A DNA stretch of 64,000 bases, from positions 434,001 to 498,000 of the forward strand of contig RSEE01000021.1 in assembly GCA_003971905.1 (NCBI GenBank), read 5' to 3'. The position numbers and the translations under genes were made by a program. This stretch comes from Moniliella sp. 'wahieum' (Eukaryota). Below, piece by piece: positions 3,632 to 61,318 of the stretch. Below the pieces are notes generated by a model that ran no database searches, was not told the origin of the DNA, and worked only from the letters and a program-made list of their open reading frames with translations. The stretch's first letter is position 1. Each line of letters starts with the position of its first letter.

Positions 3632-4818
3632 CCACCCTCTTCTTATCCCGTGCATGTCTCCTTGTTCTCCGCATTGCTCCATCTGTTCATCTCGGCCGTG
3701 TCCACGCCATTCCTCCAGCTATCCCGGCTCGATAGTCCGTCCGATGTCCTCTTCCCACACCACATGCTCGCCTTCTCGACCTTGACTGCTCTACCCTACC
3801 CCTGTACCCCTGTACCCCTGACCTGCCTTCTCCCATCTCATATCATTCTTCTCATTTTTGCCCCTCAACACTGCTGGCCAGCGCCGCTGTTTCCCTGTTC
3901 CGCCCTCGTGGCGCAGATATCCCTGAGCTGCGTTGGATTGAGAGCGAGACCAGGGCCTGGCCTCGTTGAGGGGTCGACCTTTGCCTCGTCCTGCTTACTT
4001 TGCCTCTGAACTCTGTTTCCGTCTGACATCCCTCTCACTTTTCCTCTTTGAACTTCACACGACTTTGCCCCCGTCCCTGCGCCTCCCTCCGCTATACTAT
4101 ACCAGCTGGAGTACTGTACGTCCAAGTGAATGGCGCTCGCCCATATAGATGCCTGTACAGTACAGTAGGAATACAATAATGGGAGCGAATTAGTTACGGC
4201 TTGTTGGAGATTCAAGCTTCAAGCTTCACAGTTCACAGTGGTGCAATAATTCCCCTACAAGTGTGGTACAGGCGGCGTTCCCACTGTCATGATGAGAGAC
4301 CACAGGTAAAACGGGCGTAGGCGGCATGCCTTATAATTAACGGGCGATTGCCCATATTGGACGAGAGCAACAGCCGAGAGTCTCACTTATGCATACTTAT
4401 ATTAGTCACTCAGCCTGTCGATTGGGCCGTCGGCTAGAACCATATCGCCGGGCTCGCGCAATGATGAGAGTTTTACTTGACACTGGAGAAAAGCGCAAGC
4501 TTTCCTAGGCATTAGCAACTAATGCACTCTCGCTTCCAATTCCCCCCTCTACTGTATTGGTTCCCCTACTAACTATCGACTATCGGCATTGGCTATACGA
4601 CCTTCCGACGACAAAATGGGTTTGTTGTGACTCCATCGTGAATTGATCCGGTCATACTTTTTAACAAAATCATTACAAGGCATTTAGGGGTAACTGGCAG
4701 GCAAAAGGGAGAAGCGGGTAGGCTTGGAGCCCGTCCGCAATAACACAAAAAACAGGTGAGAGGCAGGGACATCAAAGTGAAAGCTGATGAGAAAGCGCAA
4801 GAAAAAAGTAAAGAACGG

Positions 4819-6696
4819 TCATGGAGAGTAGGTCTGAGCCATCTTGCCACAAGCCGGGTTGGGAAGCGCATTGATGTAGTCCATGGTGGAGGTGTGAGAG
4901 CCCATGGCGGGCACAGCACCATTGGCAATCTGTTGCAGGAACGAATACTGCATCTGATGTTCTGGCGGCTCGGCCTTTACGGGCGTGGTGGAGTTCATCA
5001 TCTTGAACCCCCAGAAGAAGGAGCCAGCGCCCGAGGCGTAGGCCGCCACTTGGGTCGCGTAATACTGCGCATTCCAGCCGGCATCGGTGGGGCCAGACAC
5101 CAAGCTAAACTCAGTCTTGGCCATGGGTACGGGGAAACCGTCGTAGATGGAGGTGATTTGGCACACCAGGTTGGTGATCTTGCTCTCGTCCATCACGGCC
5201 GGGAACCAGCCGGGGTACGGGTTGTCGTTGATCACCAGCATCGATGCATTCTTGCCGGTCGCAAAGGGGGCCCAGTACTGGGCGGGTTTAGGGGCAAATC
5301 CATGGTGGAAAAACATGCTGTACCCAGCCTTTTGCAGCGTGGTGTACGACCGCTCGTAAAAGGCCTCGGTCACGTTGAGGTGCGTGCCGACGGTCGCATA
5401 AAACACTCCATTCGGCTCATTGACCGGCGAGATGGCACTGACGACCGACTTGTAGGGGTTGTAGCTCAACCAGTCAATCAACGCCGCCAGCGTCGCATCC
5501 GACCGCTGCTGGTTCTGGTCAGTCCACCAGGCGGGAGAAGTGGTGTTGAGTCCACTGGATTGATCACCCGACTATACATAGACAAGATTCAAAAGGAGGA
5601 GTTAGCCAGCGCCCAGGATATGTACAGGGGGTCGGTGTGTGTGGGAGGAGGGTAGACGTACCTGAGATCGGGCAGACCGTGCAGGTCAATCACCGCGTAC
5701 ATCTTGCGTTCCACAGCCATCCAAGCGCACGGGTGAGGTGGAACAGTTGGGTCGAGTTGACATAGGGTTCGCCATCGACCAGGGGGATGAAGGGCCAAAA
5801 GCCAATCGGGATGCGAACTTGGTTGACACCGTACTGGTACAACGTCTCAATCTCGTCCTCGGTTACCCATTGATCGAAATGGTCGTTGAGGACCTGCGAC
5901 GTGTTGGCACCTACCGTTTGGGAAAAGTGCCACTCGTCCCAGTCGTTGGGAGCATACTGGGTGAACCAGTCTTCATCCGACCATCGTTCGAGGATAAGCC
6001 AGTTGTTGAGCGAGACGCCCAATGCCTTCTGGTTGTTATTAGCCCAGTCCCAGAAGGGGAGGGGTGTAATGTTTTTGGGATTGTTGCCACTGCTATCGAG
6101 GGGAGAAGCAGCGGGTTGGCCGTTACCAGAAGGAGTGCTGTGGGTTGTGACGGCGCTTGCGATTGCGACGGCGATGGTGATTGCGATGATTGCGATTGCG
6201 AGAGTGGTGGTGGGTGCCAATTCCCACGGTCGACGATGTGGTTTCTTTGACAATCCTACTCCCAAGCCGGCCCCCAGTCCGACAGCCAGGGCAACAATCC
6301 GAGTGCAGCCAAGAGGACAGCCATTTTCTTGTGAGACGCGAACCAAGAGCGTTGACCTACTGGCTTCTCTCCGACGGGTGTAGGAAGAGCATAGGGGTCG
6401 TCCTGTGGGAACTGATGGCCACGAGACGAGGCGGCGCCTGTGGCAGCTGCGCCACTGGTGCCTAGGCGAGAGGAGCTGTGTGGATAATCGGGGCTGTCAG
6501 AGCGGTAGCCGGCGTGAGTGTGTTGATTGGGGGTGGGTTCGAGCAAGACGGAGTCGGATCGGCCCCAGTCGGTGCTGGCGCCGCCGGCGGTGCTTGGACG
6601 GGCGAACATGGCGGTAGAAGACTTGCTGGGCATCATGGGCTCTGCTGTCGACGAGGGGTTGACAGAGAGCTTCATATCGGGTGAGGGCGAGGCCAT
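4819..6696 (-). CDS. GH5 (subfamily 9-like) exo-1,3-beta-glucanase / glucan 1,3-beta-glucosidase with a cytoplasmic N-terminus, one TM helix and a Ser/Gln/Pro linker
   Basis: GVSLNNWLILERW, DEWHF, LNDHFDQWVTEDEI, GVNQVRIPIGFW, VIDLHGLP(GSQ), acid/base VNEP, nucleophile TEFSL and GSFFWGFK. Intron 5661-5572 (GTACGT...CTAAC...TAG). Hydrophobic segment LALAVGLGAGLGVGL near 6260-6320. Confidence 0.92.
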
Positions 6697-8451
6697 GATG
6701 GCGGTCGGGTGGCTGAATAGGATGGATTAGGGGGTTGGGGGGTTGGGGGCGGCGGTGGCAGGAAGAAGAGGGAGACAGAGACGGGCAGAGAAGCGAGAGG
6801 GGGAGCCCGCGCGTATGCCTGGGTGTAGCCGCTGTGTGCGACGCAGCAAGGCAGAGTGGTATTTATACAGAGGTACTGGCCGCGTGGCGTAGTAGGTTGC
6901 TGCAGAGCCGATGCGGATGATGGGAGCGGCGTGGTGCTGTACTTCTGCGTATGGCCAGTCTGATCCTCGTCTCAGGTACTCAGTACCGGGTATATCACAC
7001 CGAACACAGACGATCCTCGAGCCTCGAGGTGCCGCAGGACGCGCATGGGCGCGGCAGGGCGCCGCATGGCACTGGGGCGCGCGGCGTTGGGCGCTTGAGC
7101 CTTATAGCAGCGTCTGCGCTGAGCGGCTGGGCGACTGGGAGACTGCGGACTGAGTCTGAGCGGCTGAGCACGCAGTACTGAGTAGCTTCTCAGCCGCTGC
7201 GATGCATCCCTGCATCAGACGGCTACTGCAGCAGCGCCAACGCTGCCGACGGGCCAACGCCTGCTTGCTGCCGGGCATGCCGGGCAACGCCCTAGTCCCT
7301 CGTCCCAAGCACGCGCCACCCCACTAGTCACTAGCACTAGCTAGTCACTGCAGTCGCTGGGAGTGGGTCGCCCCGAGGGCCGCGGGTGTCTGCAGCACGG
7401 GTGTCTGCAGCCGTGCTGCAGCACCCTCTGGATCCAACTCAAAACTGAGACTCAGTACTCAGTAGGTGCCCAGCCGACGATCACTCGCTGACCGGTCACC
7501 GGTCACCTAAGCTGACGCGCTGACGGATCATCGATTGGGACAGGCTCGGGGCCTGTGTCCATTGCAGCGCCCTGGGTGCTGGTCCCTGGCTGGCGCTTGC
7601 CACTAGCCACTGTTTGCCACCTACTGCCCCGCGCCAAGCACACGGCGAATAAGGCGGCTGCCCCCTGCTGCCCCAGGGCACACGGCAAGTAACTGTTCCT
7701 GGACAGCCAACCCCGCTGGGCGGAGGCGTGGGTGCGTGGGCGCAGGGGCGCGTGGGCATCGGAGTTGGGTGGACGGGCGCAATGGGTTGGCTGGGAGCCT
7801 GGTCTACGAAAGCGGGGAAAGTCGCTCACCTAGATCGCCGATCTTACCCGTTCTCCTGATCAGATTGCCCATCCGGATCATCATGTGAGCGTCATAGCGC
7901 ATGATGCATGAGTGCATGAGCGCCCGACCTATGATCCTCCGAACGTCATCGAGCGTCATCGATCATCGACGTCATCGCGTCATCGCAATCGACGCAGGGA
8001 TGCGAAAATCATGTTAATCATGTTTGATCGTCCACGTTCCACTGACATGTGCGACACATTGGCTGCGTACAGAAGCGCAGGCCCAACGAAGCATTGATGA
8101 CATAGAAACCACTGCAACATTTTGTAACTACATGTGATTGTACCGAGTACATGGTAAATTGGCGTCCAGGTACGCCGTCACGAGGTGCTCCGAAGAGAGG
8201 AGAGGGGGGCATAACAGTGGGGCGCGTTTGCGAGTGTGCGACGGCGCACAGTGTTGAAAGCGTTGGGGAAATCGAGCATGGCGATTGAATTTGTCTAGCT
8301 CCAGGACCTCCTCCCCACAGTTGGTGCTGTAATATAAAACGCTCTATAGACCATCCGCTCGATGGGCTCCACTTCTTACGCGATGATATCTCCAGTTGAG
8401 TTGGGAGGAGCCTTGTGGCCCGAGCAGAGCGAGCGGTGGTGATGACGGGGC

Positions 8452-8480: not shown

Positions 8481-8995
8481 CAGGCGTCTGCGTCATCAGA
8501 ACCAAGTAAACCACGCGCTATTTTGAGAGTTTGTATAACTATGAAATGGTACCCACGCCCAGGTGGCGTAAGTAGTGGTTACCGGTTACCGGTTATGCGT
8601 CAAGTGTGCTGCAAGTCTCTCCACGGATCACAGATCACATGGGATCACACAATGTTATGTTTGCTGCCCTAACCAATGCGCTGCCTGTCTTTCTCGTCCA
8701 TAGCCTTCGGTAGTCCATCCTGCAACAAGGCCACGGCGTGTCGCCTGAACCCCTAGGTGGACAGGATCCGATCAAAATGATGAATATACGACTGTCGGAT
8801 GATACTGTGTGCAATGACTCGATGTACCTTTTGCTCGCTGTGGCTTCCTACGAGTACTATGGCTTCCTGCTATGGCGGATATCAAAAGTGGAGGAAACCA
8901 ATAATGACTTTTTTCATCAACAAGACCAAACAAATTAACGAAACCAATTAAAAAGCACAACAACAATCGCAAGCAAAATGAACAGGAGCCTATCT

Positions 8996-9505: not shown

Positions 9506-10727
9506 GACAGGAATGGAGGACGGATAAGAAGATGAAGAGGACGGGCTGGGGGACCGGGAGGATGGACATGAATCATACGAGGACGGTTGAGAAGCATGGG
9601 AGGGTAGACAGGAAACAGAAGAGGACGAGGAGGAATAGATGAGTTGGACAGGGGTGCGGGCAGTAGCAGCAAGAAGTTGACGCGACTGAAGGGAGCAGCA
9701 GCGCGGCACCGAATAAACGGTTCATCGCGAACAGCGCAGGGGATGATGGGGGGGAATTGCGTGGCGACAGCGCCTACTCGCCGCTTTTAAATGCCTGTGC
9801 ACCCGCTGTTTTACAATGTCTCAGTCTGACCACCGGGATTACGCGATTACGTGATGGCACATTGAATATTCAATGTTCAAGGCGGTCCACGTTCAACTTG
9901 AAATTGAATCTTGAACGTTCAACACGTTCAACGTTATATAGAAGCGGGTCCTCTTTGTTGAAGCTTGAAGGGGTATGTGTGAGGATTCCCCTGCACGACC
10001 CTCAGTTGATCGGTGACGCTCGCCTAGCGGCCGATGGGCGGAAGAGTTCCGCTCGCAGGCGGCGCGCCCCATGCTCGCTCCATCTCCCTGTTCTCTCTCC
10101 TGACTCCTTCCCTTCAGACGTTGCTAGAAGATTTGGCTTACCACTTTTGCCTTCAAGCTTCACGCCTTGTCTGAAGGTTGCTTTGCAGCTGATCCATACT
10201 GGTCGCGAGGACTCCTAATTCGCACTCGAGCATCCTTTAGTCGGTCCCGATCCCTGGCTCAGGCCTGAGCCTCAGGCGAGCAACGCATCTACCACTAATC
10301 AGCGCTCAGCGCTCAGCATACTAGCCGGCGAACCAGCTTATGACCGTGCCATCCCCAGCCATCCCCACTGACAGACGATGGAGATGGGGAGGAAGGGATC
10401 ACCTCAGAATCATATTCATAGGCGAGGTAAATATATGCCTCGGAGAAGAGAACATGCGAGCTGAATGACATCGAGAACAGGAAGTGGAGCATAGACAAAG
10501 GGGAAAACAGGGCCTAGACCAAATCAAGGGGCCCATCCAACCTGGTGACTGTGTGTGCCAGGTGGGTCTGACTGAGGTCTGATCCCAACACTCACGCTTC
10601 GTTGTCGTATCCCATCCACAGCTCCTGCGCCCCGCTGAGGCCCACTCCGCTCAGTGAACTGGAAGCTCCCGCGAACCGACTGTTGACTTCTTGAGCCATC
10701 AAGCTTCAAGGAGAGGAGGACAAGTAC

Positions 10728-12105: not shown

Positions 12106-13668
12106 AGTACCGTATACATAAGGGCTAAGGAGAGAGTATACAAACGTAGAGAACAGGAGGCTCACAATAAACGCACACTCAGCGGCTCAGGATTCCACGG
12201 GCGCACACACGGCTCACATATGCACGAGAAGGGAGCAGTCAGAGATAGTTTCTTGCAAGCCCCAACGCGTAACGCGGGTCCGATCTCGAGGGCCAGAGGG
12301 AGAGAGAAAGTCTTCGGCTTCTTGTGGCAATGGCTTGGACGCTGAGCTATGACATAAGGTGTGGGATCACTGATCCCATCGTCTAGTCGAGTTTCTCACG
12401 ACGCCAAAATTGGGTGGAAAAGTCGATGACCGGTGCCGGTGAGGTGCAGACAAGCATATCAGTGGGTGACATCAATGTCAGTAAGGTGTGGCGCAGGACG
12501 CCTGAGGTCAGGTCTGGGAGGGTGCGCGATGGACACACCGCGGCGGGCAGAGGGGTGGCCGGTGGCCGGTGGCTGCCAGAGCTTGGGTGGACAGCGCGTA
12601 GGGACCAGAGGAACGGGAGAACAGAGAACCGGTGGGGCCTCCGGGACAGTACCGCGCCAAGGAGATGTACCACTTAGCTCGTAACAGTGTAACTAAGTAC
12701 GAACCGTAACTGTGTGGGTTGGCTCACAGGGTAGAATGCCCGAACAATGAGATGATGCGTGACACGTTATGATCGATGATAACTTTGAACGTGGAACGTG
12801 ATTAGACCGATTAAGGTTGGTGGTAATATACCCGGACATGTTTTGATGGGCACAAACCCTGTTGGGAGACAGGAAAACGCAGTACTGTTTTTAAGCGCAT
12901 TGTTGCTGCCTGCCGGGCACAGGTGGGTTTTTCTGACGGGAGCACAGGCTGGGCGCTGGAGCGGCTGGCAGCCAAACGGTACATCTGAAGCATCCAAGTG
13001 TTTGCGAGCACTCGGACTGAGGAGCGTTGAGCAAGTGACCATGGCGGTGAAAGACGGAAAGCCAGTGCGATGTGAAAACTGGGAAACCGAGCTGTAACAG
13101 AATACCGTCGCTCCGCAAGCATGTGTCAGGCTCAGTCCATGTCACGCTCCGCGCTCCGCAGGGCTCAGGCGCTAGGCCGGGGGCGAGGGAGGGCAGGGGT
13201 GGGAGGGTGCGGCTGGTGTGGTGGCAACGCCACCCACGCGCTGGAGGTGCCTGGGCACCTGCCCCTGCCACCGGTGGGGGGGGCGAAGCAGGGGCGGCAC
13301 TAGGCCGCAGGGGGGGGGGGCGCACGCGTGGGATGGGTGATGGGGATGGCGCATGTGTGGCATGCCAGGGCCATGTGCGTGTGACATGTGATGCATGCAA
13401 CCACGGCGGCAGCGGCCACTCGAGCGAGGCAGCCAGCCAGCAGCCCAGGCCGCACCCAAGCCAGCTGCTGTCGCCTCTGCAACCCTTAGGCCTTACTCAG
13501 TAACTGTACTCCTACTCACATCTCAGACGCGGTACGCCTTCAAATTTCAACCCCGAACGAGCGACTCGACCCGCTTCCAGGCGTGCCTTATTTCTGCCGG
13601 CCAGCCACGCCCGCCGCTCGACGCCCCCACCGCCCCCACCTCGCCATCCCCCCCGCCAGCCTGCCAGC

Positions 13669-17649: not shown

Positions 17650-19020
17650 TTGAACTTGATTGATCTCCATACCCTTTGCTCTCCCTTGGGCTCCCTTTTC
17701 CTCTTTCGTGGATCTCCTTTGCACTCCTCTCGTTGGTGAATCCCCTGCCACATCTCTTCAGGTCATCGTTAGTTCTCGAATCGGACACTCGACACCCACA
17801 TCCTACTCAAGGCACATCTTCATCCCCACCCCACCCCTCCATACATCTTTATTTTCCCACACACTGCCAGCTTGACTGGTTAGACACACATGTCCTCTAT
17901 TGTCTCTTATGCATCGCGTGGGTAGCCTGTTTGGTTCAGCACCTAGCATTTTGCGCGTAGGTTTGGGGTAATCGTAGCCTGCGAGGCCACCATACTGACC
18001 ACAACTAGCCTAGCGAACACCGAGGCAGGGAACCCGGAGCCTCTCTCGCACCGCTGTCCCGCATGTATGACTCTGTGCGGCTCCGTGGAAAGCAAGACTT
18101 GCCCTGCCGTTCACGGACGAAAAAACGCGGCCCGGACGCATCCTCCTATTAGCCATGGTGGGAACAACCTGAGGCCTGATGTGTCTCCAGTATTTGGTCG
18201 AAACAGAGGACGCGGGCTGCGGGCTCGACTGACGACCCGGTTGCTCGCTTCGATTGACTCTGCTGCCCATCTCGCCCGCTCATGGCCATGCTCACCATGT
18301 TTGACAATCCCCGTCCCGTCCTATCAACAGTCGTGGGCCAGCAGCGGGGAACGGCCCAGCGAAACACGTTCTGCACATCAGGCCCACGGTCGGTGCTGTA
18401 GTAGCCGTCGTGGCCCCACCTAATATAGGTCCGCTTAGCTATGCTCTCCTGCTGGAGCAAGACGAGGCTGATGGTGTGCATACTCACTGGCGGTCCGAAC
18501 AAACCTCATCGGCCACCGCGATGGCTAACACGGCCACGACATGAGGAAGCGGCGATGCACTGGCCCTCCCCCGTGTGCCACCTGGACTTTTAGTGGGGTG
18601 TTGGTGCTAGGCGGGGGGCACGCGGGCACGCGGTCACTTTCTCTCAGGCAACACATTGTCAGCGGGGTTCGCCTGGCTTTTGGTAGGGTCCCGAGCAGAA
18701 AGGACAGACGCGGCTTGGGTGCGTGTCATTCGTAGTAATGGCAACTTGAAGGGGGCGTGTTGTTGGTGCCACATCCCTTGATGACCTATTAGTGTGGTTT
18801 GACAAAAGGGTGAGAGCACTATATCAGGGCGATGGGTGGCTGCGTTCTCTGTCCGGCCAACACTGCGTCAATCGGGCCTCGAAGACGCCGAGTCCTCAAC
18901 GGCACCGAGGTACTCGGAATGCCACTGCGGTACGCTTTTCTACATGTAGACAATGTTGGGCGCCTATACCACGCCATGTGTGGGCAAAGAAAAAAATAAA
19001 GTACAAGCATGATTCGTTAA

Positions 19021-20282
19021 TCACAGGCGTGGGCGTACAGTAACAGACACAAAGCAAGATGGGAGGGGGAGGGAGGGGGACTGGGATCCGATACTGGTTC
19101 TACCATGGGGGGCCTCCTCCTCCATCTCGGGGCGGAACTGGTCATCGACACTCACTTGCAGTGTCAGGCCACCATAGAGGTACTGGTCAAACCGTTCCAA
19201 CGCACGACCCGCATCGATGGCGGAGGCGAACCGGACAAACCCCCGTTTTTGGCCCTGCCGCTCTTCTAGCGTTGCACTCACCAAGGGCGCAACCGTATCA
19301 AACAGATCAAACAGGTCGTCTCGCTCCGTCTCGGTGGGAAGATTGTCTACCACCAGCTGAGTTGGTTCACGCACCGGCCATGCTGGTGGCGCCGCCCGAA
19401 CGGGGAAGGCGCTCCTGCCACCGGTACCAGACCAGCGCGATCCCGCATGTCAGTACGTCGCGCACGTCACGAGCCTCACGACGGTCAGTGGGTCACGCCG
19501 TACGTCGCGGGGATCGCGCGCGTCCACCTCCCCGGGGCATGCTGCTGTCTGCTTGGGCCGAGTGGGTTAGGGCCCAGTGATCTGCGCGCACAGAGATTGC
19601 CCTCCCATTCAAGTTGGCCAAGTGTAGCTTCTCACACGCCCACCGCGCCGAAGCGGGATGGGCAAACTCAACGACCGCATCGCCATTCCGGGAACCATCC
19701 GGATGCAACAACACCTCCACCCCCAAAACTCTCCCAGCTGCCTCATCAGTTTGCGAAGTCGTGGTGGCGGTACCGCAGCATCCAAATTCCCCACCAAAAT
19801 CCGCCGCTCCCCGCGTGCGGCATGCGCTCCATCCACTCTGCGTCCCGTAGAGGAGGACGAGGATGGTCGCGTTCGCGTTCGCGCGGGTGTCGGGGCTCAG
19901 GCCTCGGTCGCTCGACATGGGGAGAGGGACGCTCATGAGGAGGGGCTCATGCGCATCCAAGATGGCGGAAGTAGGGTCGCGAACAATGGGAGGCGGAGCA
20001 GCAAGGAGCTCGCGCTGTGGGGAGGCAGGGGATCGTGCTCCTCTTCAGCTTGTGCGAGAACGGCCGCTCATCCTCCCTTGGCCCCCATGTGCGGCGCGCG
20101 GCACTGAAAGAGTCGTGACGGGGAGCTGTGCGTGGTGGGGGGGAGCGCGATCGTGAGGCACGTGGGCGGACGCGCCGACCCATCGTGGCCAGATGAGATG
20201 GGAGAGATGGGACGGGAGAGTCCAGGCTGTCTCGTCTGGCCCCATCGTCCGGCACTCTTGACCCCTCCTTAGGCCTTATCAT
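19021..20282 (-). CDS. RNA-binding protein with an Arg/Ser-rich N-terminus and two RRMs (Gbp2/Hrb1-like)
   Basis: RRM1: RRILVGNL...GSRNGDAVVEFAHPASARWACEKLHLANLNGRAISVRAD. RRM2: QLVVDNLP.....DDLFDLF...RGFVRFASAIDAGRALERFDQYLYGGLTLQV. N-terminal RASRSRSPPPR. Confidence 0.8.
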
Positions 20283-45285: not shown

Positions 45286-47389
45286 AGCAAGAATGGCGAC
45301 GCGAAGAATGAGAGTTCCCAGCGCCAGTACAATGTGGGCAGCGAGAAAAAGAACAAAGAAAGTGTGCGGCCAGGATGAGAACGGGCCGGAAAAGGGGGCG
45401 GAAGACGCTTGGCGTCGACATGTACATCCGTGCCGGCCGGGACGGCGGCGGAGGGGGGCATGCGGCAGGGATCCTAGAAGCACAGGCAAGCTGCGTTTGG
45501 CACTTCACTGAGGCAGGCGGCCAGCGCACAGCATGGAGCCCACAGCAAACAAAGGGAGATGGTGGTCGGTACTTGCAGGCTATCAGCTCTCGCCAAATAT
45601 TGAACGTCGCAAAATAAGCCACCAGAGATTGGGGCGGTGTAGATGAGACAGTGCTGAGAATTGAATACTCGATTCCATGTTCAACATTCAACGGAAGCTT
45701 GAGAAGACATCAATGCCTGCGCCAGCCCACACAACTATAGCGTGCTGCTCCTTTCCAGTACAGGCGCAAGCCAAATCACCTAGCCGCCAGTTACTAGTTA
45801 CTAGTTACTGGTTACTCACTAGTCAAGCACAAGCCAACGTGGATTCCCTTCGACGCCCCGATGGTTGACGCGTTGATGGCGGCAGGCGAGGGTCAATATT
45901 CAATAGTCGACGATCGATGATTATCAATTGGTGAACTCGATGAACGCATCCCATTCTGCACGCAGCTAGTGTGCCAACAGGTGCGTCTGTGCTTGGGCCG
46001 CAACGTGTGTGATGCGTGTGCATGCCTGTGTCCTCTACACAACATGCGGTAATCCTTTCGCGCTAATCCTCCTGTGTGGATTGGCCCAACATTTAGAACA
46101 GCCCCTAACCCCCCTGATGCACCCGATGTACAGTGGAGAGTGGCTCTTCTCGTTGGATATATGAGCCTTAGTACACTGCGTCATGCGTTATACTATGGTA
46201 CCCTAATTAGTTGTATGGGCGCGAGAACGTTGCCAACATCATTAGGTTGACATCATTATACTACCTCTATACCCCGCTCTCAATTTTGACCCCGCCATAT
46301 CGCAAGGTTGCCATGCACTCCAGTACCGTCGTGACCCTTTCCGGCGAGCCATATGCACATGGTGCATAGTTTTGGCAAATTATGAAGGTGGCAGAGAGAT
46401 GGTACTTCTCTCTGACAGAATAGTAGCAACACAGATGTACCACAACATCATATAGCGAAGCGTTTGAGAGACGCAGGCTATAGAATCACACACACATTAT
46501 CATACTCGTATTCAAATATCATGATGAGAGACTGATGATGACGTCGATGAGTTCTTATATGGTCACAGAGAGCACCAAACACCTCACAAGCCACACAAGT
46601 ATATGTGGCTTTCCAGTGCATATATCTGCTTGATGTGGAACACACAGGCTTGCTCTCTGAGATCTGAGATGCGAGAGAGATGTGATACACATATGGCAAA
46701 GACATGCACTGCGTCTCCTCCACAGGAAAGAAAGAGCGGTGGCTCTCTCTCGTATTACAGCACCACCTGTTGTGACAGTGAGTCAAGTGTTGTGTGAACA
46801 ACAAATCGAACGTGCCAGGAGGACCATAACTAGTGGTCCATAGTACGAGTCGCGTTGCATCCGGCATGGCGAGCGGCGTGGATCGTCAGAAAGATGAGGC
46901 TGGAGGGGGCGCCAGTTGGCTGGTGTCGTCATGGTGCCGGCGCCCGTTACAGCACTCATGTAACTAGTAGTTAAATACCGACCACAATCAATTACTATTG
47001 CGCCCAACAAACTTCTCGGCATGCAGGGGCGTTTTCCCATCGCTGCTTCCATTTCAATGGCAGAGCTTAAGGCTGGGACAGGAATATTAGTACTAGTACT
47101 AAAAATAAGCAAAGAGCGCCTCCCATTTAAGGAAACCATGCCCAAAGCTCGGGCTCCGTAACCCCTCTTATTTCGTCTACCACCCGTCTACTCGTCAGCG
47201 GGCTGTCAGACATGGCACCTAGGGCCCGCACAGGCTTTGAGGGGTCAAAGGGCTTACTGGTGACGCTCGCGGCAAGCGGCGCTCCTCCACCCAGAGTGCG
47301 GCAGGGGCGCCGCCGGCAGACGCTGTTACCACAACGCCTGCTCGCACGACACGTGGGATCCATCGTCGTACCCCGTCCGCGGAGGGGAC

Positions 47390-50690: not shown

Positions 50691-52565
50691 GGAACATTAA
50701 GCAGCGAATCGCCACAGGGGCTAAGCTGCGGAACAAGGAAAAACATGAGAGAAAACAACGAACTCCCAGGCCTGAGAAGGAACTGAAGGACATTGGCCAA
50801 AGCACGAGCCACTGATGCCTGATGCCTGATGGCTCAGCACCCTAAGGGTATCTTCCGGTCTCTTCGTTTTGTTGGTATACATGATTATACCTTTCTAGTA
50901 ATATATGCTGACTGGTAGGGGGGGATACCAAAGCTGTGGAAGACAATTCTTGAAGTATATATGCCTCATCGACTCACCGACCTCATCAGCGTTTCTTTTG
51001 TCACCCTGTCTTGATCCTTGTTGAATACAAAGGATGGCTACCGCAGGGCGAGTCTCCTAACGAAAGACCTCCGAAGGATGCCACCGAGGATGTTTCATCT
51101 GTTCCGGCGGCTGCGGCGAAGTGGACGGCCGCACCGGAGCCGCGCGAGTCCTGTTATTAATAACTACTAAGGTACTAAGTACTAAGGCCTAATCAGAAGG
51201 CCCCTTAAATTCCTTAAAAGCTCCTTGAGCTTTAAGACTGACCCAAAGCCTGTGCCCACGCATATGTGCCAGTAACCGACTTTGATCGTCAATATTCAAT
51301 CTGGTCCGTCCACACCTAGGACAAAACACTCTTGTGGGCGAGGAAACAGCGCGGGGCTCTCTCCTAAGGCCCATGACCTATAAGCGCTATAAGCCTGAGG
51401 TCTGAGGCTTAGATCTGAAGTCCTGAGGACCTTGGGGACCTCTGGGAGGGGCCTGAGGTGAGGGGCGCGATGTGCGAGAGGGTGTAACGTGTACGTCTGT
51501 TGTGTAGGTGCGGGGCGTTTTGTGCCAGGTTGTGTCCCTGCGTGCTTCTCCCCGCGATCACCGGTCACCCGACCATCGACCAAACGCACGCGTCAGGCTC
51601 CAAAGCTTCAAGCTCTTCAAGTTCGATCAAGTTAGCGGCCAGCGGGCTCAGGCACTCAGGAGCTCAGGCGTCACGCGTCACACGTCACAACCTCGCATGT
51701 CACATGTCACATGTAGCCTGCAACATATCACAGATCTCAGATCTCGATCTCCGAGCTTGGCCAGTGCTGGATCTGTTTGAGCTTGTGGCTTGACCAGTGA
51801 CCGTGACCAGTGACCGCCCCTTGACCCCGCACCGGCATCTGGGGGCGGCGGGATGGCGTATGAACGAGGCGGAAAGTCAGTTCTCAGTCCTCAGTACTCC
51901 GTTACTCTCTGCCCAGGACCCAGTCGCTCTCTGCCGCACTAGTCACTAGTCACTCTGGCCGTTCGCTGTTCCTGTCTGCGACGCGTACATCGCGCCACAC
52001 TGCCCCCGATGGGACGAGCAGGGGCCGCTTTGTGCCGCCCCGCCACCCCACGCGGATGCCGCCACTCCCCCAAGCGTTGATATTGATACGCTGATAGGTC
52101 CATCATCGATCCATCATCGATGAAAGACGTGCCTCCGGCAGTGTGTCTCTGATACATGGTGCATGGCAGGGTATAGCCGGCAGCAGTACAGCTTGGGGGG
52201 CCTCGCGCCTCCACGCCTCCCCACGCCTCCACTGCCTCCCTGCGCCCCCCTGTGTAGGCCGCTGCGGGCTGGGTCCGAGATGTGGGGACAAGCCGGAGAG
52301 GACGAGGAGAGGGACCACTAACAGGTAACGACACTGGGTACTGCCTGGGACTGCACTGCGGCCTCTCCGCCCTCGTTTGGGCCGAACCGCCGCTTCGGCT
52401 TCACAGCCACTGTCGCCTGTTTGGCTGTGCCAGGCGCTGTCCTGGACACTGGCTGGTGATCTCTCGATCATCGATCACTCGTATTTAACCCCCGCCTTTC
52501 CGAGCCCCGAGCACGCCCGCTTCCATTTGGGCCCGCCAACTCGGATAACCTTGACGACCCACACC

Positions 52566-53043: not shown

Positions 53044-56000
53044 GAAGCCCCCTCTTCTCTCAGATTGGCCTAGTCCACCTTGCGTCCATATGTGCTTCAA
53101 CAGCGCTTCCAGCACGTGAAGGTGTTTTACTTTACTTTCTTGAGTGTGGATATACTCTTTGGTTCCCCTTCTTGATTTTTTCGGCTTAGTGGCAGGTGCA
53201 TGCTATTGCCACAATTGCGACTATTCCCCCTCCCACTGCCTCTTCTCCTATATACTGTTGGGCCCTTCAGAAGCTTTACAACACATCCGTCTACCTTTTA
53301 TGAAGTGGGCGATGTATACCAGAGGCGAATGGAGTTGAATGTCCTATTCTCGTCTCAGCCTACTTTTCTCGTTACATGGTTCAATCCATAGTACAGCACC
53401 GCTGGCAACAGAAACTTTTATTTTCCCTGGCAGTGGTGGGCTACCAAGTAACACACACAAGATGAACCGGTCGGTTTAGGCGTAGCGTTTCCCTGTCCCA
53501 ATCTTAAGCTCTGTCAATGATATGGATGCGATATAGGACAGGGGGATTCTCGCATGCTCACGCATGCTGGCACGCTCATAAGATGCATGATTGATGCATA
53601 ACGCGATGACTCTGGGTTACATGACATGCGACTCACATTGTCCCACCTACGCCGCGTGTGAACACGGGGGCAGACGGAGCATTGCAACTGCGGCCCAGTC
53701 TCTTCTTGTCCGCTTTTCAAGGTCTTCAAGCTTTCCTAGACCCTCCCCCATCTCCTCCTGCATGGGGCTTTACTTGGCTTCACAAAATTGGCGAAGTTCA
53801 TAATAGTGATCAAAAGCTTATTAAGGAAGAGTGATGATATTGGTATGTTGTTTAAGCAGTTCCAGAGATCTCTGGCATGGACCTGCCAAAGACCTTTGTG
53901 GCCAAAACGAAAGCATGGAGGGTCCCGGAGGAGTATATTAGCACAGCGCATACGCGCAGCAGGTGTAAGGTTATGCACAGCGAACATCAGAAAACGCTAT
54001 CACCACAACATATCGTGATCGTACAGATATGTCCTGCAGACAGGGGTTCGTGCGGCCAGCACAGTTTTACTCATCGCCCAGCGGGAGGGCCATGCCATTT
54101 TATACAATGCATCACTGCATCACCGGTATCTGCGTCACCACTTTTCTCTGTATGTCTCGACGGAGTGTATAATACAGAAAGGGTTATACGTTACCGGAGT
54201 TGCTCCTCTGAGGGTTTGATTCGCCTTGATTCGAGCCATTTTTCCTGAGCACTCTCCCGGGGGATAACTATAAACATATCGTACCCTTGTAGTTGACTGA
54301 GCAGTGTCCACCATCCAGGCAATAGCGATAGGCGGGTCTCGGTACTCAGTCGTAGCACTGAAGGGATTCCTCCATAGCACAGTAAACATGAAGTTGAGCA
54401 AAGGATACTCATGAATTCACCTGCATCAGTATAAGGTGGAATGTAATCGTTCACAACGTATGAATTTAGGAATGGCAAGTGTGCGCAGATGAAACGGTGG
54501 GGCAGGTTGCTATACACTTGTGCTGGTAGGTGAAATGGAAGAGAAGCCGCCTGCTAAACTGGTTGGGTCATGGAACGAAAAAGGGAAAAGGATGAGAAAA
54601 AGAAGCTGTTGAAAAAGTTTGGACCGTCAGCGTTTATCCTTTCTCCCCAACCGTGACGCCAATGCCAAGACTTGAATCCACATTCAAGAATATGGGAACG
54701 TACCTCGTATCTGTTAGTAAACATCGTTGACCCATTGGTCGTTTAACCGAATGGCCTTCTACCTTCCCACGGAAGGAGTTGTTGCTGGAAGGATCCTTTC
54801 GTGTGAACCGGGGTTCATGGAACAGAGATAAACTGGGACCGCGTCAGACACGCACACACGAGGGCGTGTTCTCTTTGGTAAAATGCCATCATTCTGCACA
54901 GTCTCGACCTACTTGATGTAGGTGAGACGGAGAGACTTGCTAAAACTGGGTCAACTCCGTGGCTCATTGCTCAACAGTTGAGTCAGAGTGACAGGTTGAC
55001 GGAGAAATGTGCAACGTTCGGGCTCAGGCATGGGCAGTGACCTTATGGGTCGAGGCGCAAGGGGGGGCATAGCTGACCCATCGGACGGCAAAGCCATCCC
55101 TCCCAACGAAGGTGCCACCCCTTTTGGACCGTCATTCGAGCATTGGATAAGGTGCTGCACACCGCGGCCAGGCATATAAACGCGAACGGCCAGCGAAAGG
55201 GGATGAAGTGTGGTCACAGTTCCTTTAAAATTGGACGAGAGAGGGGACATTGCGTCCAGAGTGAGCTGGCGTAGCGGTGGTGGTGGGGCGATGGAGATGG
55301 GAAAGCGAACGACGACCGGGCGAGCCACAGGTCTTTTAAGAGTACTTTTCTATAGGGGTGGCGAACACAAGTGGGGGGTGCACAGGGCGCAAGCTATGTT
55401 CGCAACCCCTACTTGTGGAGGAGGCGCAGGGGCGGTTCGAGAATGAGACTGCTCCAATGCGAGACGACCGAGGAAATAGCTCTCCACCGCACGGTGTTGT
55501 GAGAGCTTTCAATGAAGAGGGCACAGGGCCAGCGTATTCGGCTCTGAGATCTGACTCGGGTCATGCGCATGACACCCTCTGTCATCTTCAGGCGATGGCG
55601 GCGGGAGGAGCCACTTTTGGCCAGGGGCGTGGGAAGCAGCAGCCCAATAAATGCCTGGCGGGGTGTCAATATTGTCAATCGTCTCCCTTCCTCCGTTTCG
55701 TCCCAGCCCGTCTCGCCCGGCATGCTGCTGGCTGTGGTTCATAGTAGGGTTTCCACTTGAACGTTATATAGGCCGCACGAGCCACGCGAAAGTCAGTGGG
55801 TGGAGATGAGACCAAGACACGGTGTGTGGAGAGCAGAGATGAATATTGCATCCTCGATGGCTTGAGGCCTGAGGGAGGACATGGAGGGAGTATGGCAAGA
55901 GTACGCCGCATGAGCGACACGTGACATGGGAACCAGTGACAACTGTGACAGTGAAGCGTACAGTGTGACAGTGACATCCAAAGTGCCTAAGCGCCTCCTC

Positions 56001-56434
56001 AGCGCCTCAGCGCCGAAAGGGCATGTGACAGGATGTGACGCCCGTATCACACCTCCTTTTCAACTTTCAGAGGCGTGCCTGGCCATCGCGTCTACCGATC
56101 TCTGTTTCGCCCGTGAACTTGTGCTTTTGATGCAGTTGGCTGGGTTCGGTGGCGGTGAGCGCGTGCTGACGTCATGCACGTCATAGGGATGGCGATGGAG
56201 CTGCACCAAGCAGGTGGTTGAGCCGATGAGCGATGGGCCTCAGGCCCTCATCGATCATCGCTGAGCGCCGCGCGCCCCCACATTAACGCTCAGGTGGCCA
56301 GGCTCAGGCTTGGCCTTACCCTGGCTTATCCCATTCGCCCAGCTCGCCCGGTTATCGTTCGTTCCGCGCCACCACCGCCTCTTTCTCCCCCGCTTGTTCT
56401 TCCTCTTTTTCTTCCTCTTCGTCAGCCTCACAGC

Positions 56435-58997: not shown

Positions 58998-59455
58998 CTC
59001 CACGGCACTGCTGGTCGAAGGGAAGGAGGAGGAGGCAAGGCGGGCAGGGCAGGCAGGAGTTGAGAATGTGATGCCGTGGGAGCCGCCCAACGCCAAGCTC
59101 ACCTAGAGTACCAAACCCGCTTTGCGGGGCGAAACGCATCGCGACTGCCGCTCTGCCTCAGTCTGCGCAGCACGGCAGAGCACTTACGCAAGCCGTCGCT
59201 GCAGGCCGTCTCGTCCCCGCTTAGGTACCGGTTGTTGTTGAAAACATGCACGCATGGTTCCGCCTGGGCGGAATGGAGCGTCAATGGAGCGTCACCTCCT
59301 GGTCACCTTTTTGCAGCTTAGAAATGGGCTGGGGCACCAGGGCACAGTGCGGGCGTTTGTCCCATCACCCCCGCACATCACGCGCCCTGCCTCGCCCTCA
59401 GCGCCCCCCAGCACGCCCACATCCCGGCCTTGGCCCCCTCAGGCCTCACCCCACA

Positions 59456-60073
59456 ATGTTGTTTGCGTCAGCCCTGCGGACGCCTCTGGCGCGCACGTCC
59501 GTGCGCAGCCTCAGCACCAGTGCTCGCGCTTCCTTCATTGGCAAGGCCGGTCCTGGACAGACCTCTCTGCCGTGTCTGGCAAGACGGGCTCCCGGGATCT
59601 GGCCGCGGAGGAGGCGCGTCTCGCCCAGGCCCACACCGCGGACATGGTCAGCGACGCCCCGCCCGAGCTGGCGCAGCGTCCTGTGCGCATCTTTCGCCCC
59701 AACAAGTCGGCCACTACGTCGGGAAAGGCGGGTACCGCGACCTGGCGTGTAGACTGGGATATTCTTCAGGGCTCGGGCCGGTGGGAGAACCCGTTGATGG
59801 GCTGGGCTTCCTCTGCCGATTACATGCAAGGGACCAGCATGAAGTTCAAGACGAAGGAGGACGCTATCCATTTCTGTGAAAAGCAAGGTACGCAAGCGCA
59901 CCCCGCTAGGTGGGAGAGGGCACCTACGGTGGGCTCATCCACTAACTCATTCTTACCCATCCAGGATGGCCCTTCTTTGTCCAAGAGCCTCACGTCTCGC
60001 GTATCCCACCCAAGAGCTATGCAGCAAACTATAGCTATGCGCCCGGCAAGTTGCGCATTGTGACACCAAGTAA
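59456..60073 (+). CDS. NDUFS4: NADH:ubiquinone oxidoreductase subunit NDUFS4 (18-21 kDa, NUYM)
   Basis: Presequence MLFASALRTPLARTSVRSLSTSAR; RPVRIFRPNKSATTSG, RWENPLMGWASSADYMQG, KFKTKEDAIHFCEKQG|W...PPKSYAANY. Intron 59888-59964. Confidence 0.97.
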
Positions 60074-61318
60074 ACTGTCTGATCGCACCTTCTTGCTTTG
60101 TTGCATACCCTGATTCTGTAGTCTGGCTAGCAGCTGGAGGGTAAGATTGTTCTCGTGCTGTGGCTCAAGTTATGATCAAGGGGCCAGTAGAGGATAGGAA
60201 AGCAAAGTGTTCCAAAAAGGTGGAAGATGGTGAGACAACATCGGCAGCTATATACTAGGTTGTAGGAGGCGATGGGGTGGAAGGGGTGCTAGAACGGCAG
60301 TATCGACGGATGGAAGATGTAGTGGGAGGCTGATTCATTGTCAAGGGTGCCAGTCAGGTAGGAAAACTCTTTCCTGCATGACGCGCCAATAGTGAGCAGT
60401 GAGCGCTGTGAGCACTGCGGTGGGTCTTCCCTCGGAGCTCCCGGGTTCATGGGCACGAATTTAGGTGATGAAGGCCTTGTCCCATCGAAGGGTATGCAGG
60501 TGGGTGTGGCGGCGTGTGGCCTCCTTGATTGAGGGACTGCCTGCCTGTCAGAACCAAGAGAAGCAAATCCAGCGGTGCGGGTCCTATTGAATAAGCGAAT
60601 CAGAAGTGGAAGTGTTTCACCTGGTGAGAATCGTCGTCCCAACGACTGCCTAACAGCAGTACTCGCCGAGCGGCGAGCGAGGCGGGTGAAGAAGCAGGAT
60701 GCAGATCAAACCACTACGCGCGAGGACCGTGACAAGGAGCCAATAGGGCGAGGTATGTCGCAACCGTCTACACGGAGGCCCAGACGGGTACAGTTCGCAT
60801 TGCTGTGACAATTGGAAGAAGCCCTCCGCGTGCACTCGACTCGCCTGATGAGGCGGTTAGTACCGTGCCGCCGCGTTTCGTCTGGTGGGGGTGGCAAAAT
60901 GAGGATGCTGGCGGCGCTTGCTTGCAGATTCAACCACTGGTTGAAAGTGCTTTGAAGGAAGGATTGAAAAGCCAACCTTGAGTGTGTTGAGGCTTGAAGC
61001 TTCAAGGCGCCTCAGACGATGTGGAGATGAATATACTCCTGTCGTTGATGGCAGCCGAGAGCTGCGTGTTGTCCTGTTGTTTCTCTGCCCGCCAGCGCTG
61101 CGTTGGCGGTGGTGCAATTGAAATTGAAAGTTGCATTCCACAATGCTTTGTGTGGATCATCGATCTCGCTCGCAGGCTCATCACCCTCACGCCCCACGTG
61201 CATCACGTGGCCCAATTGTCAGCATCACCCTGCCGCTGCCACTCGAGGCAAGAACTGGGTCGAGCAAGCATCAAGAACGACATCGGCCTCACCATCGCCC
61301 CATCCACATCCATCAGAC

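Follow-up and report, generated by a model that had tools for sequence, protein, structure and literature searches.

Footprint-forming systems and the present putative scars

Transposons with 7-bp target duplications are known in basidiomycetes, namely hAT7 of rust fungi and Kyakuja (KDZ) of the Agaricomycotina, the latter widespread in mushroom-forming species (PMC12730594, available portion). Hairpins on flanking DNA are made by hAT, Transib and Mutator-like elements and by RAG; they are opened by host enzymes and sealed by end joining (PMC5499845, available portion). Excision of hAT elements leaves P-nucleotide footprints, which were heterogeneous in experiments in C. albicans (28 types among 128); the palindromes of Ac-type footprints have an odd centre, which is the complement of the element-adjacent base (PMC5873905, available portion).

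The putative scars described here, in the window (the whole 64-kb stretch of DNA that was analysed), share with hAT7, a cut-and-paste group of the hAT superfamily, the basidiomycete host and the deduced 7-bp duplication. The available text and supplement of PMC12730594 state no target consensus for hAT7. The window, however, contains neither a hAT transposase nor hAT termini, and its palindromes are even-centred, in contrast to those of the Ac type, which counts against the reading favoured below. In Transib/RAG-type excision, opening of the hairpin off its tip adds palindromic bases with an even centre. The target duplication of Transib is 5 bp, whereas the repeat here is 7 nt. A further likeness to this type would be that the nick is made exactly at the border and the flank becomes a hairpin (PMC5499845, available portion). 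Kyakuja elements differ in that they have no inverted termini, and no KDZ gene is present in the window; how they excise and what footprints they leave is not covered by the available portion of PMC12730594. Ac/Ds in S. cerevisiae and C. albicans resembles the present case in that target copies are kept in a fungal host and are joined with small deletions and with palindromic inserts of 1-3 nt. It differs in that it concerns single experimental sites rather than a genome-wide deposit, and in that the duplications are 8 bp long, the outcomes are heterogeneous and the palindromes have an odd centre (PMC5873905, available portion). Ordinary slippage in micro- and minisatellites likewise arranges copies head to tail in non-coding DNA and makes paralogues differ in copy number, but it lacks the 12-nt founder, the fixed phase, the inverted dinucleotide and the period-specific palindromy seen here.

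A single 12-mer behind the period-7 arrays

The period-7 stutters are real and far from random. All 16 arrays of the initial annotation were found again, with positions agreeing within 0-2 nt. When perfect tandem repeats of at least two units were compared with 100 block-wise dinucleotide shuffles, the window contained 48 of period 7 against a shuffle mean of 4.05 (maximum 9), which is beyond the control. The corresponding values were 52 and 15.8 for period 6, 9 and 1.0 for period 8, and 9 and 0.33 for period 9; TRF assigned period 7 to 36 of 123 rows. Apart from one central base, 25 of the 48 period-7 units are self-reverse-complementary (random expectation 10.6%), and 23 of these 25 consist of T-N-A and a 4-bp palindrome. 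The palindrome excess is confined to period 7, being absent at periods 4-6 and 8-11. In same-strand autocorrelation at distance 7, the four strongest signals are T-N-A trinucleotides (3.4-4.7x), and TCA-TGA shows no enrichment (1.0x). All 13 palindromic cores annotated initially were confirmed; shorter runs contribute TTAA and AATT, bringing the total to 15 of 16 palindromes. The cores are built from at least 12 different dinucleotides, and the G+C preference of the palindromic units is weak. It should be mentioned that about 13 of the 48 perfect arrays contain neither T-S-A nor T-W-A and require a different origin.

The annotated rule of T-N-A plus a 4-bp palindrome is thus present, but it is a by-product. 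A single 12-mer underlies the "grammar": T-S-A-c-d / d'c' / T-S-A-c-d, also found in mirror form, in which a pentamer occurs twice in direct orientation around a 2-base spacer complementary to the pentamer's end. The 4-bp palindrome consists of the last two duplicated bases of the target and two complementary P-like bases, which makes the palindrome rule secondary. Period-7 runs of T-N-A plus palindrome numbered 26, 9, 26, 14 and 6 at lengths of 10, 11, 12, 13 and 14 nt, respectively, and peak at 12 rather than 14 nt. A plain 7-bp duplication is incompatible with this length. The form R-x-R is found in 22 of the 26 twelve-mers; R is T-S-A-c-d and x is d'c' in 13 of them, and the other 9 are mirror forms. 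Direct repeats of T-S-A-n-n with fillers of 0 to 7 nt numbered 5, 12, 106, 31, 35, 12, 26 and 9. The two-nt filler is the reverse complement of R's final two bases in 72 of the 106 cases (chance 1/16), and the complement of its first two bases in just 7.

An unbiased census of R followed by its last m bases in reverse complement and then by R again was compared with 20 shuffles. At m = 2 it gave 132 cases against 10.0 for period 7, 23 against 2.6 for period 8, and 14 against 0.5 for period 9. The period-7 logo of R emerged unprompted as T (95/132), C/G (100/132), A (92/132), n, n. P2 footprints, T-S-A-type direct repeats with two P-like bases between the copies, amount to 107 events in 67 loci (Table 1), whereas 50 shuffles averaged 0.58 events and 0.50 loci; this corresponds to 67 loci per 64 kb, or about one scar per kilobase. 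Period 7 accounts for 84 of the 107 events. The other 15 possible base pairs around the centre gave 0-9 events each, the central base is C or G in 58 of the 67 loci, and T-C-A/T-G-A pairs are inverted in 7 cases versus 59 direct. Where the period-7 filler is not P-like, the repeat is an exact 7-bp copy centred on T-S-A in 18 of 34 cases (both strands counted); T-S-A is also exactly central in three of the four non-palindromic 14-nt arrays.

Table 1. Scar loci and related repeats in the window
Position	Strand	Feature
4210..4230	+	P2 footprint locus, 2 events, TCA-AGCT (array 4211-4228)
7450..7463	+	P2 footprint locus, 2 events (array 7450-7464)
7494..7525	+	P2 footprint locus, 4 events
7900..7921	-	P2 footprint locus, 2 events, period 8 class
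7954..7984	+	P2 footprint locus, 2 events (array 7956-7969)
8007..8022	-	complete 7-nt repeat + 2 P-like nt + complete repeat, period 9
8577..8597	+	P2 footprint array, 3 events (array 8577-8595)
8626..8639	+	exact 7-bp tandem copy, TCA central, no P nt
9837..9851	+	P2 footprint, period 8
9917..9932	-	P2 footprint, period 9
9957..9970	+	P2 footprint
10151..10164	-	P2 footprint
10297..10317	+	P2 footprint array, 3 events (array 10299-10317)
10697..10710	+	P2 footprint
13380..13393	-	P2 footprint
13484..13497	-	P2 footprint, T-W-A centre
18168..18181	-	P2 footprint
20267..20280	-	P2 footprint, T-W-A centre
21919..21932	-	P2 footprint
21958..21971	+	P2 footprint, 2 events
21966..21999	+	longest period-7 array, 34 nt; unit non-palindromic, TCA central
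22076..22089	+	P2 footprint
22230..22243	+	P2 footprint
22256..22276	+	P2 footprint array, 4 events (array 22253-22276)
22524..22548	+	two overlapping 12-mers; TRF period 11
22617..22651	+	P2 footprint locus, 2 events (array 22619-22630)
26657..26683	-	P2 footprint locus, 2 events
26841..26863	+	P2 footprint locus, 3 events, including one of period 9
26883..26896	-	P2 footprint
26987..27000	+	P2 footprint
27032..27064	+	P2 footprint locus, 2 events
27103..27116	+	P2 footprint, T-W-A centre
27211..27224	+	P2 footprint array, run 27207-27227
27269..27290	-	P2 footprint locus, 2 events; mixed fillers close by
27363..27376	+	7-nt odd palindrome, two exact copies
27587..27614	+	P2 footprint array, 5 events; 26-nt run 27589-27614
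30078..30092	-	P2 footprint, period 8
35541..35561	+	P2 footprint array, 3 events; adjoins end of paralogous segment (array 35543-35561)
35688..35703	-	P2 footprint, period 9
36132..36152	+	P2 footprint array, 3 events (array 36132-36151)
36308..36331	-	exact 7-bp copy (36308-36322) + period 9 P2 event
36391..36404	-	P2 footprint
36663..36677	+	P2 footprint, period 8
36837..36850	+	P2 footprint
36883..36896	+	P2 footprint, TTAA core
37131..37144	+	P2 footprint
40764..40777	+	7-nt odd palindrome, two exact copies
40816..40830	+	P2 footprint, period 8
40933..40961	-	exact 7-bp copies, TGA central (40933-40952) + period 8 P2 event
45789..45809	+	7-nt odd palindrome, three exact copies, T-W-A centre
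45891..45904	+	P2 footprint
46656..46669	+	P2 footprint, 2 events
50812..50831	+	non-palindromic period-7 array, TGA central; paralogous copy = single unit (13-nt indel)
51166..51187	-	P2 footprint locus, 2 events, T-W-A centre
51203..51218	+	P2 footprint, period 9, T-W-A centre
51287..51300	+	P2 footprint
51379..51394	+	P2 footprint, period 9, T-W-A centre
51556..51569	+	P2 footprint
51606..51621	+	P2 footprint, period 9
51669..51689	-	P2 footprint + exact 7-bp copy (51676-51689); array 51668-51681
51698..51711	+	P2 footprint array, run 51696-51714
51731..51745	+	period-7 array, unit = T-C-A + palindrome
51941..51954	+	P2 footprint array, run 51937-51954
52466..52479	-	P2 footprint, run 52464-52477
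54110..54124	-	P2 footprint, period 8
55543..55556	-	P2 footprint
55664..55679	+	P2 footprint, period 9
55861..55874	+	P2 footprint
55997..56011	+	P2 footprint, period 8
56246..56259	+	P2 footprint
59437..59450	-	P2 footprint, sole locus in Pfam-matching ORF, upstream of matched domain
60391..60404	+	exact 7-bp tandem copy, TGA central
60982..61017	.	inverted form, T-G-A ... T-C-A around one core, one of 7 such cases

Deduced target and location of the putative scars

In the minor classes, the direct repeat reaches 6 or 7 bases (a-b-T-N-A-c-d) and is never longer. Nine of the 14 period-9 cases consist of a complete a-b-T-N-A-c-d, d'c' and a second a-b-T-N-A-c-d, and the census contains no 8-nt repeat with 2 P-like nt. 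The repeat therefore does not exceed 7 nt and is centred on T-N-A. The 7-bp target deduced in this way is palindromic in 2 of 41 single-event loci (chance 2.6). The palindrome is therefore created by the event, as P-nucleotides are, in the 39 loci with a non-palindromic target. In these 41 loci, base use at position 1 agrees with the complement of that at position 7 (chi-square p = 0.99); a two-fold symmetric enzyme would leave such a pattern.

The loci are located in non-coding DNA, mostly upstream of genes, and identical 7-mers reappear at several promoters. Pfam-matching ORFs, which cover 22.6% of the window, contain 1 of the 67 loci (binomial P = 7e-7), in line with the initial annotation, in which no arrays were noticed in the conserved coding sequences; a permissive, crude codon-usage mask (49% of the window) contains 8. 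Two paralogous copies within the window, about 90% identical, differ in their arrays, and one array occurs in a single copy, as a 13-nt indel. At 35543, two alternative alignments of the paralogues are possible. The array at 4210-4230 is downstream of the last long reading frames of the CSL gene, apparently on its 3' side.

Probable excision footprints and competing explanations

The stutters are probably excision footprints of one or several related cut-and-paste DNA transposons with a 7-bp target-site duplication; the transposon, the hairpins, their opening position and the ligation route are all deduced from the pattern. An element would enter non-coding DNA at a 7-bp target a-b-T-S-A-c-d and duplicate it. 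On excision, both flanks might be sealed as hairpins, a step known from hAT, Transib/RAG and Mutator-like elements. A host nuclease would then open each hairpin 2 nt off the tip, leaving a 4-nt self-complementary 3' overhang made of the two terminal bases of the flank and their complements. Of the two overhangs, one would be ligated to the recessed 5' end of the opposite flank, and the second would be lost. The joint would measure 5 + 4 + 5 = 14 nt and read a-b-T-S-A-c-d-d'-c'-T-S-A-c-d, or the mirror of this sequence. Opening of the second hairpin at +1 or at the tip might account for the less frequent forms of period 8 and period 9, and opening of both at the tip for exact 7-bp copies.

The recurring symmetric cut-and-repair scar proposed initially agrees with the pattern, and so does one of its candidates, transposon excision footprints with hairpin P-nucleotides; none of the others does. 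The 7-nt repeat and the predominance of C or G at the centre are inconsistent with a 3-bp T-W-A duplication of the PIF/Harbinger type. Fill-in at topoisomerase II or Spo11 breaks predicts direct duplications of 4 or 2 bp and leaves the inverted dinucleotide unaccounted for.

No transposon with matching ends or duplications was found in the window, and no convincing inverted termini among 2161 pairs of identical NNTNANN 7-mers in it. None of the 154 ORFs scanned, a subset of the stop-to-stop frames of at least 110 aa, matched a transposase family of Pfam. The plus-strand scan gave no joint with P bases from both flanks. To our knowledge, the density of loci is far higher than that of any known transposon footprint. 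The uniformity of the scars is unusual compared with the heterogeneous experimental hAT footprints and counts against the excision reading; it is partly a matter of ascertainment, because joints with lost bases go unrecognised.

The very high density and the window without an element would be explained if the same chemistry were performed by a host-encoded, perhaps domesticated, transposase-like nuclease. Staggered, hairpin-ended 7-bp breaks at NNT(C/G)ANN in open chromatin, followed by end joining, would leave +7 scars and account for the same pattern. This seems unlikely: duplication of the target requires strand transfer or stagger fill-in, beyond a nuclease alone, and no candidate gene was found in the window. 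We know of no such system in fungal promoters.

Replication error is also unlikely as the source. It might act by short template switches (direct, inverted 2-3 nt, direct) or by quasi-palindrome-favoured slippage, in which units forming mini-hairpins evade flap or loop repair. Short tandem duplications do exceed the shuffles at every period from 6 to 11, and T-S-A repeats with unrelated fillers occur at periods 8, 9 and 11 (31, 35 and 26). Furthermore, the unit of the longest array (21966-21999) is non-palindromic, so that slippage surely works on arrays once formed. However, replication error gives no reason for a 7-nt limit centred on T-S-A or for exactly two inverted bases. The weak G+C preference of the palindromic units and the lack of a palindrome excess at other periods also count against it. 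Fold-back copying predicts T-C-A beside T-G-A, against the scarcity of inverted pairs and the unenriched TCA-TGA.

A selected promoter code, either multimerised sites of a dimeric transcription factor or a structural element holding promoters open, would agree with the gene-upstream location and the shared 7-mers, but is very unlikely. The palindrome is set solely by two adjacent bases, the targets being almost always non-palindromic, and no single factor fits cores formed by so many dinucleotides; in addition, arrays vary between the paralogous copies and one is apparently on the 3' side of a gene. A sequencing or assembly artefact is extremely improbable, since base-calling errors would not make a target-dependent inverted dinucleotide, spare coding DNA or follow a symmetric target logo.

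In the excision-footprint reading, each cycle would leave a net gain of 7 bp over the empty site, and the joint would hold a fresh 7-bp site centred on T-S-A. Further cycles of insertion and excision, or ordinary slippage, may then add exact 7-bp units, so that the arrays would grow to 2-5 copies.

The period-7 arrays and the twelve-base motif

The initial annotation had described stutters of seven bases, in which T(C/G/T)A alternates with a 4-bp palindrome. All of its listed arrays are present, with an offset of 0–2 nt, and all of its 13 palindromic cores were found; TTAA and AATT are added from shorter runs. When perfect tandem repeats of at least two units were counted against 100 block-wise dinucleotide shuffles, a test of the kind that it had proposed, period 7 was enriched: 48 repeats were observed, against a shuffle mean of 4.05 and a maximum of 9. 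The corresponding observed and shuffle values were 52 and 15.8 for period 6, 9 and 1.0 for period 8, and 9 and 0.33 for period 9. Period 7 accounts for 36 of the 123 TRF rows. Apart from one central base, 25 of the 48 period-7 units are self-complementary (10.6% expected), 23 of which carry T-N-A around that base, and no excess of self-complementary units was found at the other periods in the range of 4 to 11. In addition, the four T-N-A trinucleotides rank as the top four in same-strand autocorrelation at distance 7 (3.4–4.7-fold). Odd palindromes of seven bases centred on T-C/G-A number 205 against 134 expected (z = 7), the other seven centre classes being at or under expectation. At distance 7, TGA does not follow TCA more often than expected (1.0-fold); owing to this lack of the inverted partner, fold-back or hairpin copying of whole units was rejected.

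It should be mentioned that both T-S-A and T-W-A (S, C or G; W, A or T) are missing from approximately 13 of the 48 perfect arrays, and that tandem repeats at periods 8–11 likewise exceed the shuffles. This means that short duplications and slippage of the ordinary kind are also at work. Three non-coding stretches (see the table) show cryptic simplicity, of which the footprint model accounts for a part only.

The length of the period-7 runs with T-N-A and palindrome units is informative. There were 26 runs of 10 nt, 9 of 11 nt, 26 of 12 nt, 14 of 13 nt, and 6 of 14 nt. The 12-mers are in two mirror forms, that is, two phases out of seven, in 22 of the 26 cases: 13 read T-S-A-c-d / d'c' / T-S-A-c-d and 9 read a-b-T-S-A / b'a' / a-b-T-S-A, where a-b and c-d are the target bases flanking T-N-A and the primes denote complements. 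A slippage microsatellite would show a smooth fall of run length and no preferred phase, whereas a 12-nt peak in two mirror phases is observed here. Since a 12-nt run is impossible from plain duplication of seven bases, the event adds five copied and two inverted bases. Repeats of T-S-A-n-n show the same pattern: for fillers of 0 to 7 nt they number 5, 12, 106, 31, 35, 12, 26, and 9, respectively. Where the filler has two bases, it is the reverse complement of the preceding dinucleotide in 72 of the 106 cases (chance, 1/16) and complements the dinucleotide that follows in 7. Among the period-7 repeats with other fillers, 18 of 34 are exact 7-bp copies with T-S-A in the centre (both strands counted).

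A census without the T-N-A assumption was made for a direct repeat R, the reverse complement of its last m bases, and R again, with 20 shuffles as control. For m = 2, 132 cases were observed at period 7 (shuffle mean, 10.0), 23 at period 8 (2.6), and 14 at period 9 (0.5). Thus, palindromic bases complementary to the flank end (P bases) occur at the joint in the census as well as in the fillers. The composition of R at period 7 emerged unprompted as T (95/132), C or G (100/132), A (92/132), and then any two bases. The complete a-b-T-N-A-c-d + d'c' + a-b-T-N-A-c-d is found in 9 of the 14 period-9 cases, and the census contains no extension to eight bases plus two. Therefore, the direct repeat does not exceed 7 nt and has T-N-A in its middle, and two fixed-length copies of a target duplication occupy a site that is otherwise empty.

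A detector for the three classes, with direct repeats of 5, 6, or 7 nt plus two P-like bases, recovered 107 events in 67 separate loci (84, 14, and 9 events at periods 7, 8, and 9, respectively). Fifty shuffles gave means of 0.58 events and 0.50 loci, and the detector with each of the other 15 base pairs round the centre gave 0–9 events. The copies are arranged directly, with the same central base in both, in 59 instances and inverted in 7, the shuffles giving 1.8 of each. Of the 67 loci, 58 have C or G at the centre; since the repeat also reaches 7 nt, the 3-bp T-W-A duplication of PIF/Harbinger elements, one of the sources suggested by the annotation, does not hold.

The full 7-bp target could be read from the intact copy in 41 single-event loci. 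It is palindromic in only two of them, against 2.6 by chance. This means that the target itself is no palindrome, and pre-existing palindromic targets were discarded as an explanation. The 4-bp palindrome of the initial annotation is a product of the event, composed of c-d and the two new bases d'c'. Base preference at the ends of the target is symmetric: position 1 (C17 G13 A6 T5) agrees with the complement of position 7 (C17 G12 A7 T5; p = 0.99), whereas the agreement of positions 2 and 6 is poorer (p = 0.10).

Position of the loci and their lability

The 64-kb window is nuclear fungal DNA with a G+C content of 57%. Pfam matches were obtained for reading frames of RTA1-like, CSL/LAG1-type, NAP, casein kinase II beta, CDC50, EMP24, histone deacetylase, NDUFS4, RSN1/PHM7, and M50B-like peptidase proteins. 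For the RTA1-like protein, labelled as fungal RTA1 family, five related proteins were found, with a top identity of 86%. The NAP protein matched one metagenome locus at 33% identity, which is too distant for promoter comparison. The CSL/LAG1-type family is not known from Pezizomycotina and Saccharomycotina; given this absence, the CSL gene would suggest a basidiomycete as the source of the window, or else a different early-branching lineage of fungi.

Only 1 of the 67 loci lies in the Pfam-matched frames, which cover 22.6% of the window (P = 7e-7), so that the scarcity of arrays in coding sequence noted in the annotation is borne out. In codon-usage masks, 2 of the 67 loci fall in the strict one (24% of the window) and 8 in the permissive one (49%). 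With 7, 8, or 9 bases gained per event, selection against frameshifts could by itself cause this absence from coding DNA. Several of the clusters lie between divergent genes, such as M50B-like/NAP and CDC50/CK2 beta, whereas at least one array seems to be on the 3' side of a gene (see the table), the label "promoter" being approximate.

Two paralogous segments in the window differ chiefly by short tandem-repeat indels, some of which involve the arrays themselves (see the table). These differences mean that the arrays are young and changeable, not conserved.

Positions of arrays, genes, and other repeats in the window
Position	Strand	Feature	Description
147–3631	+	CSL/LAG1-type transcription factor gene	LAG1 DNA-binding and TIG domains
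4210–4230		Array	Downstream of the last long reading frames of the CSL gene, apparently on its 3' side
6–10.7, 21.9–22.7, 26.6–27.6, 35.5–37.2, 40.7–41.0, 45.8–46.7, 51.1–52.5, 54.1–56.3 kb		Clusters of loci	
7000–8100, 26950–27300, 51380–51900		Non-coding stretches	Nearly all overlapping short repeats, periods 7–17, TGA/TCA-rich
9207–9396		Perfect hexamer array	GAAGGA x 31.7, 190 nt, 100% matches; may encode a long dipeptide repeat
9207–9572	-	Top-scoring minus-strand codon-usage segment of the region	Contains the GAAGGA array
10729–10948, 11873–12089		Nearly identical tandem duplication	Spacing ~1144 bp; several blocks 98–100% identical; 1-nt and 3-nt indels between copies
11080–11164		20-nt repeat	x 4.2
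20180–20248		55-bp element	12-nt inverted termini (11/12 matching), exact flanking 7-bp direct repeat without central T-N-A; perhaps a miniature transposon that duplicates 7 bp, or merely a hairpin
24380–24461	-	tRNA-Asp (GTC)	82 nt; Rfam and ARAGORN agree; sole RNA family match in the window
35373–35551, 50613–50812		Paralogous segments	~190 bp, ~90% identical, inverted orientation, 15 kb apart
35543–35561		Array	May be a 14-nt insertion beside a single T-C-A-G-G; a second alignment is also possible
47553–47607		21-nt repeat	x 2.6, within a coding-like stretch of the plus strand; the encoded protein may have a repeat of 7 residues
50812–50831		Period-7 array	Single unit in the paralogous copy; 13-nt indel

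Proposed excision model and alternatives

The joints match transposon excision sites, because they hold two target copies of fixed length and a few bases inverted-complementary to one flank. On balance, the stutters are probably transposon excision footprints. The annotation was thus right in kind in proposing a scar of recurring symmetric cut-and-repair, and hairpin excision with P nucleotides is the one of its candidates that fits. As outlined in a section of PMC5499845, hAT, Transib, and Mutator-like elements and RAG free the element through a hairpin of the flanking DNA, which is then opened by a host enzyme and sealed by end joining.

In the model proposed here, both hairpins would be opened 2 nt from the tip, so that each flank would keep five base pairs of the target copy and end in a 3' overhang of 4 self-complementary nt. 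Ligation would connect one of these overhangs with the opposite flank at its recessed 5' end, and trimming would remove the second overhang. The resulting joint would be 5 + 4 + 5 = 14 nt long, seven above the empty site, and could take two mirror forms, as observed. Were the second hairpin opened only 1 nt from its end, or at the very tip, a joint of period 8 or 9 would result, and opening of both at the tip would give an exact 7-bp copy; P tracts of at least four bases would invert the central base (seven such cases were seen). Furthermore, the joint would hold a new, perfectly symmetric 7-bp site centred on T-S-A. A repeated cycle at this site, or slippage, might add further exact units, which would account for the observed 19-nt and 26-nt runs, whose first bases are T-S-A and which stop two bases beyond a T-S-A.

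The 7-nt repeat matches the 7-bp target duplications given for basidiomycete transposons in the part of PMC12730594 that treats them, namely those of hAT7 (hAT superfamily; rust fungi) and Kyakuja/KDZ (mushroom-forming fungi). A hAT transposase gene and short inverted termini were absent from the window, in which ORFs of at least 110 aa were scanned. Kyakuja/KDZ elements have as hallmarks a KDZ transposase and CA..TG termini, and no such element is present in the window. In the Ac-type hAT footprints described in a portion of PMC5873905, the palindrome has an odd centre, which is the complement of the element-adjacent base, whereas the c-d-d'-c' palindromes here are even-centred. The joints are also more uniform than experimental hAT footprints, and joints that lost bases would escape the detector. 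Transib duplicates 5 bp, whereas the repeat in the period-9 class is 7 nt. Transib and RAG nick exactly at the element border, and the even-centred palindromes seem to fit such a nick better than classical hAT excision. A 5-bp duplication with P bases was rejected, since it would place T-S-A at the outer end of a target that lacks symmetry, and the period-9 class shows 7 nt; also rejected was a 3-bp duplication with remnants of transposon ends, which would require more than 12 different terminal dinucleotides.

In two scans of the window for inverted termini beside 7-bp (also 3-, 8-, and 9-bp) repeats, none was found with a T-N-A target, NNTNANN repeats included. None of the 154 ORFs scanned (at least 110 aa) matched a transposase family in Pfam. 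A host nuclease acting by the same chemistry, with no mobile element, would produce the same joints; we consider this unlikely. Replication template switching, or slippage favoured by hairpins, is likewise an unlikely source, and it leaves the 7-nt limit, the two-base inversion, and the lack of inverted centres unaccounted for. A promoter code kept by selection, which the annotation had also put forward, is contradicted by the arbitrary cores, the non-palindromic targets, and the differences between paralogues, and is very improbable. Arrays of transcription factor sites, initiator-like TCA elements, and "stop codons in all three frames" do not account for the inverted dinucleotide, and the orientation of the arrays relative to genes is mixed where it could be judged. 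Breaks by topoisomerase II or Spo11, another earlier suggestion, have a stagger of 4 or 2 nt, fill-in of which gives a direct duplication of the stagger without inverted bases; period 7 with an inverted dinucleotide is observed instead. Small inverted triplications of replication origin, approximately 150 bp according to PMC13334657, are of a different scale. An artefact of sequencing or assembly is hardly credible.

Precedent and meaning of the probable scars

Transposon footprints, P nucleotides, and the 7-bp duplications of basidiomycete elements are already known. In the full-text literature, no description was found of 7-bp stutters of T-N-A and palindrome or of genome-wide footprint deposits in fungi. 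Likewise, no precedent was found there for a 7-bp target centred on T-C/G-A, for the predominance of a P joint of two bases with an even centre, or for a deposit of scars so dense as to be the main tandem-repeat class of non-coding DNA. One scar per kb is well above the density known for any genome. Simple-repeat surveys that end at six-base units would overlook the whole class. The 12-mer rule, R followed by the reverse complement of its last two bases and R, provides a simple genome-wide detector for any fungal assembly.

If the excision model is true, the scars alone reveal the target length of the transposon (7 bp), its target preference (symmetric flanks around a central T-C/G-A), the chemistry of its excision (hairpins on the flanks), and the position at which the host opens the hairpin (2 nt from the tip). 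Transposon traffic, not slippage, would then have written a large share of the promoter tandem repeats, which would bear on how promoters acquire new sequence. It is conceivable, if doubtful, that the promoters of this fungus are cut at NNT(C/G)ANN by a hairpin-forming transposase that is undescribed and of extreme activity, be it a free element or a host-kept gene, and that new promoter sequence stems mainly from its +7 scars. The scar density under this reading is about 1 per kb of genome and about 2 per kb of non-coding DNA. Such a transposase, if real, would give the genome its own means of writing short self-complementary repeats at gene starts.
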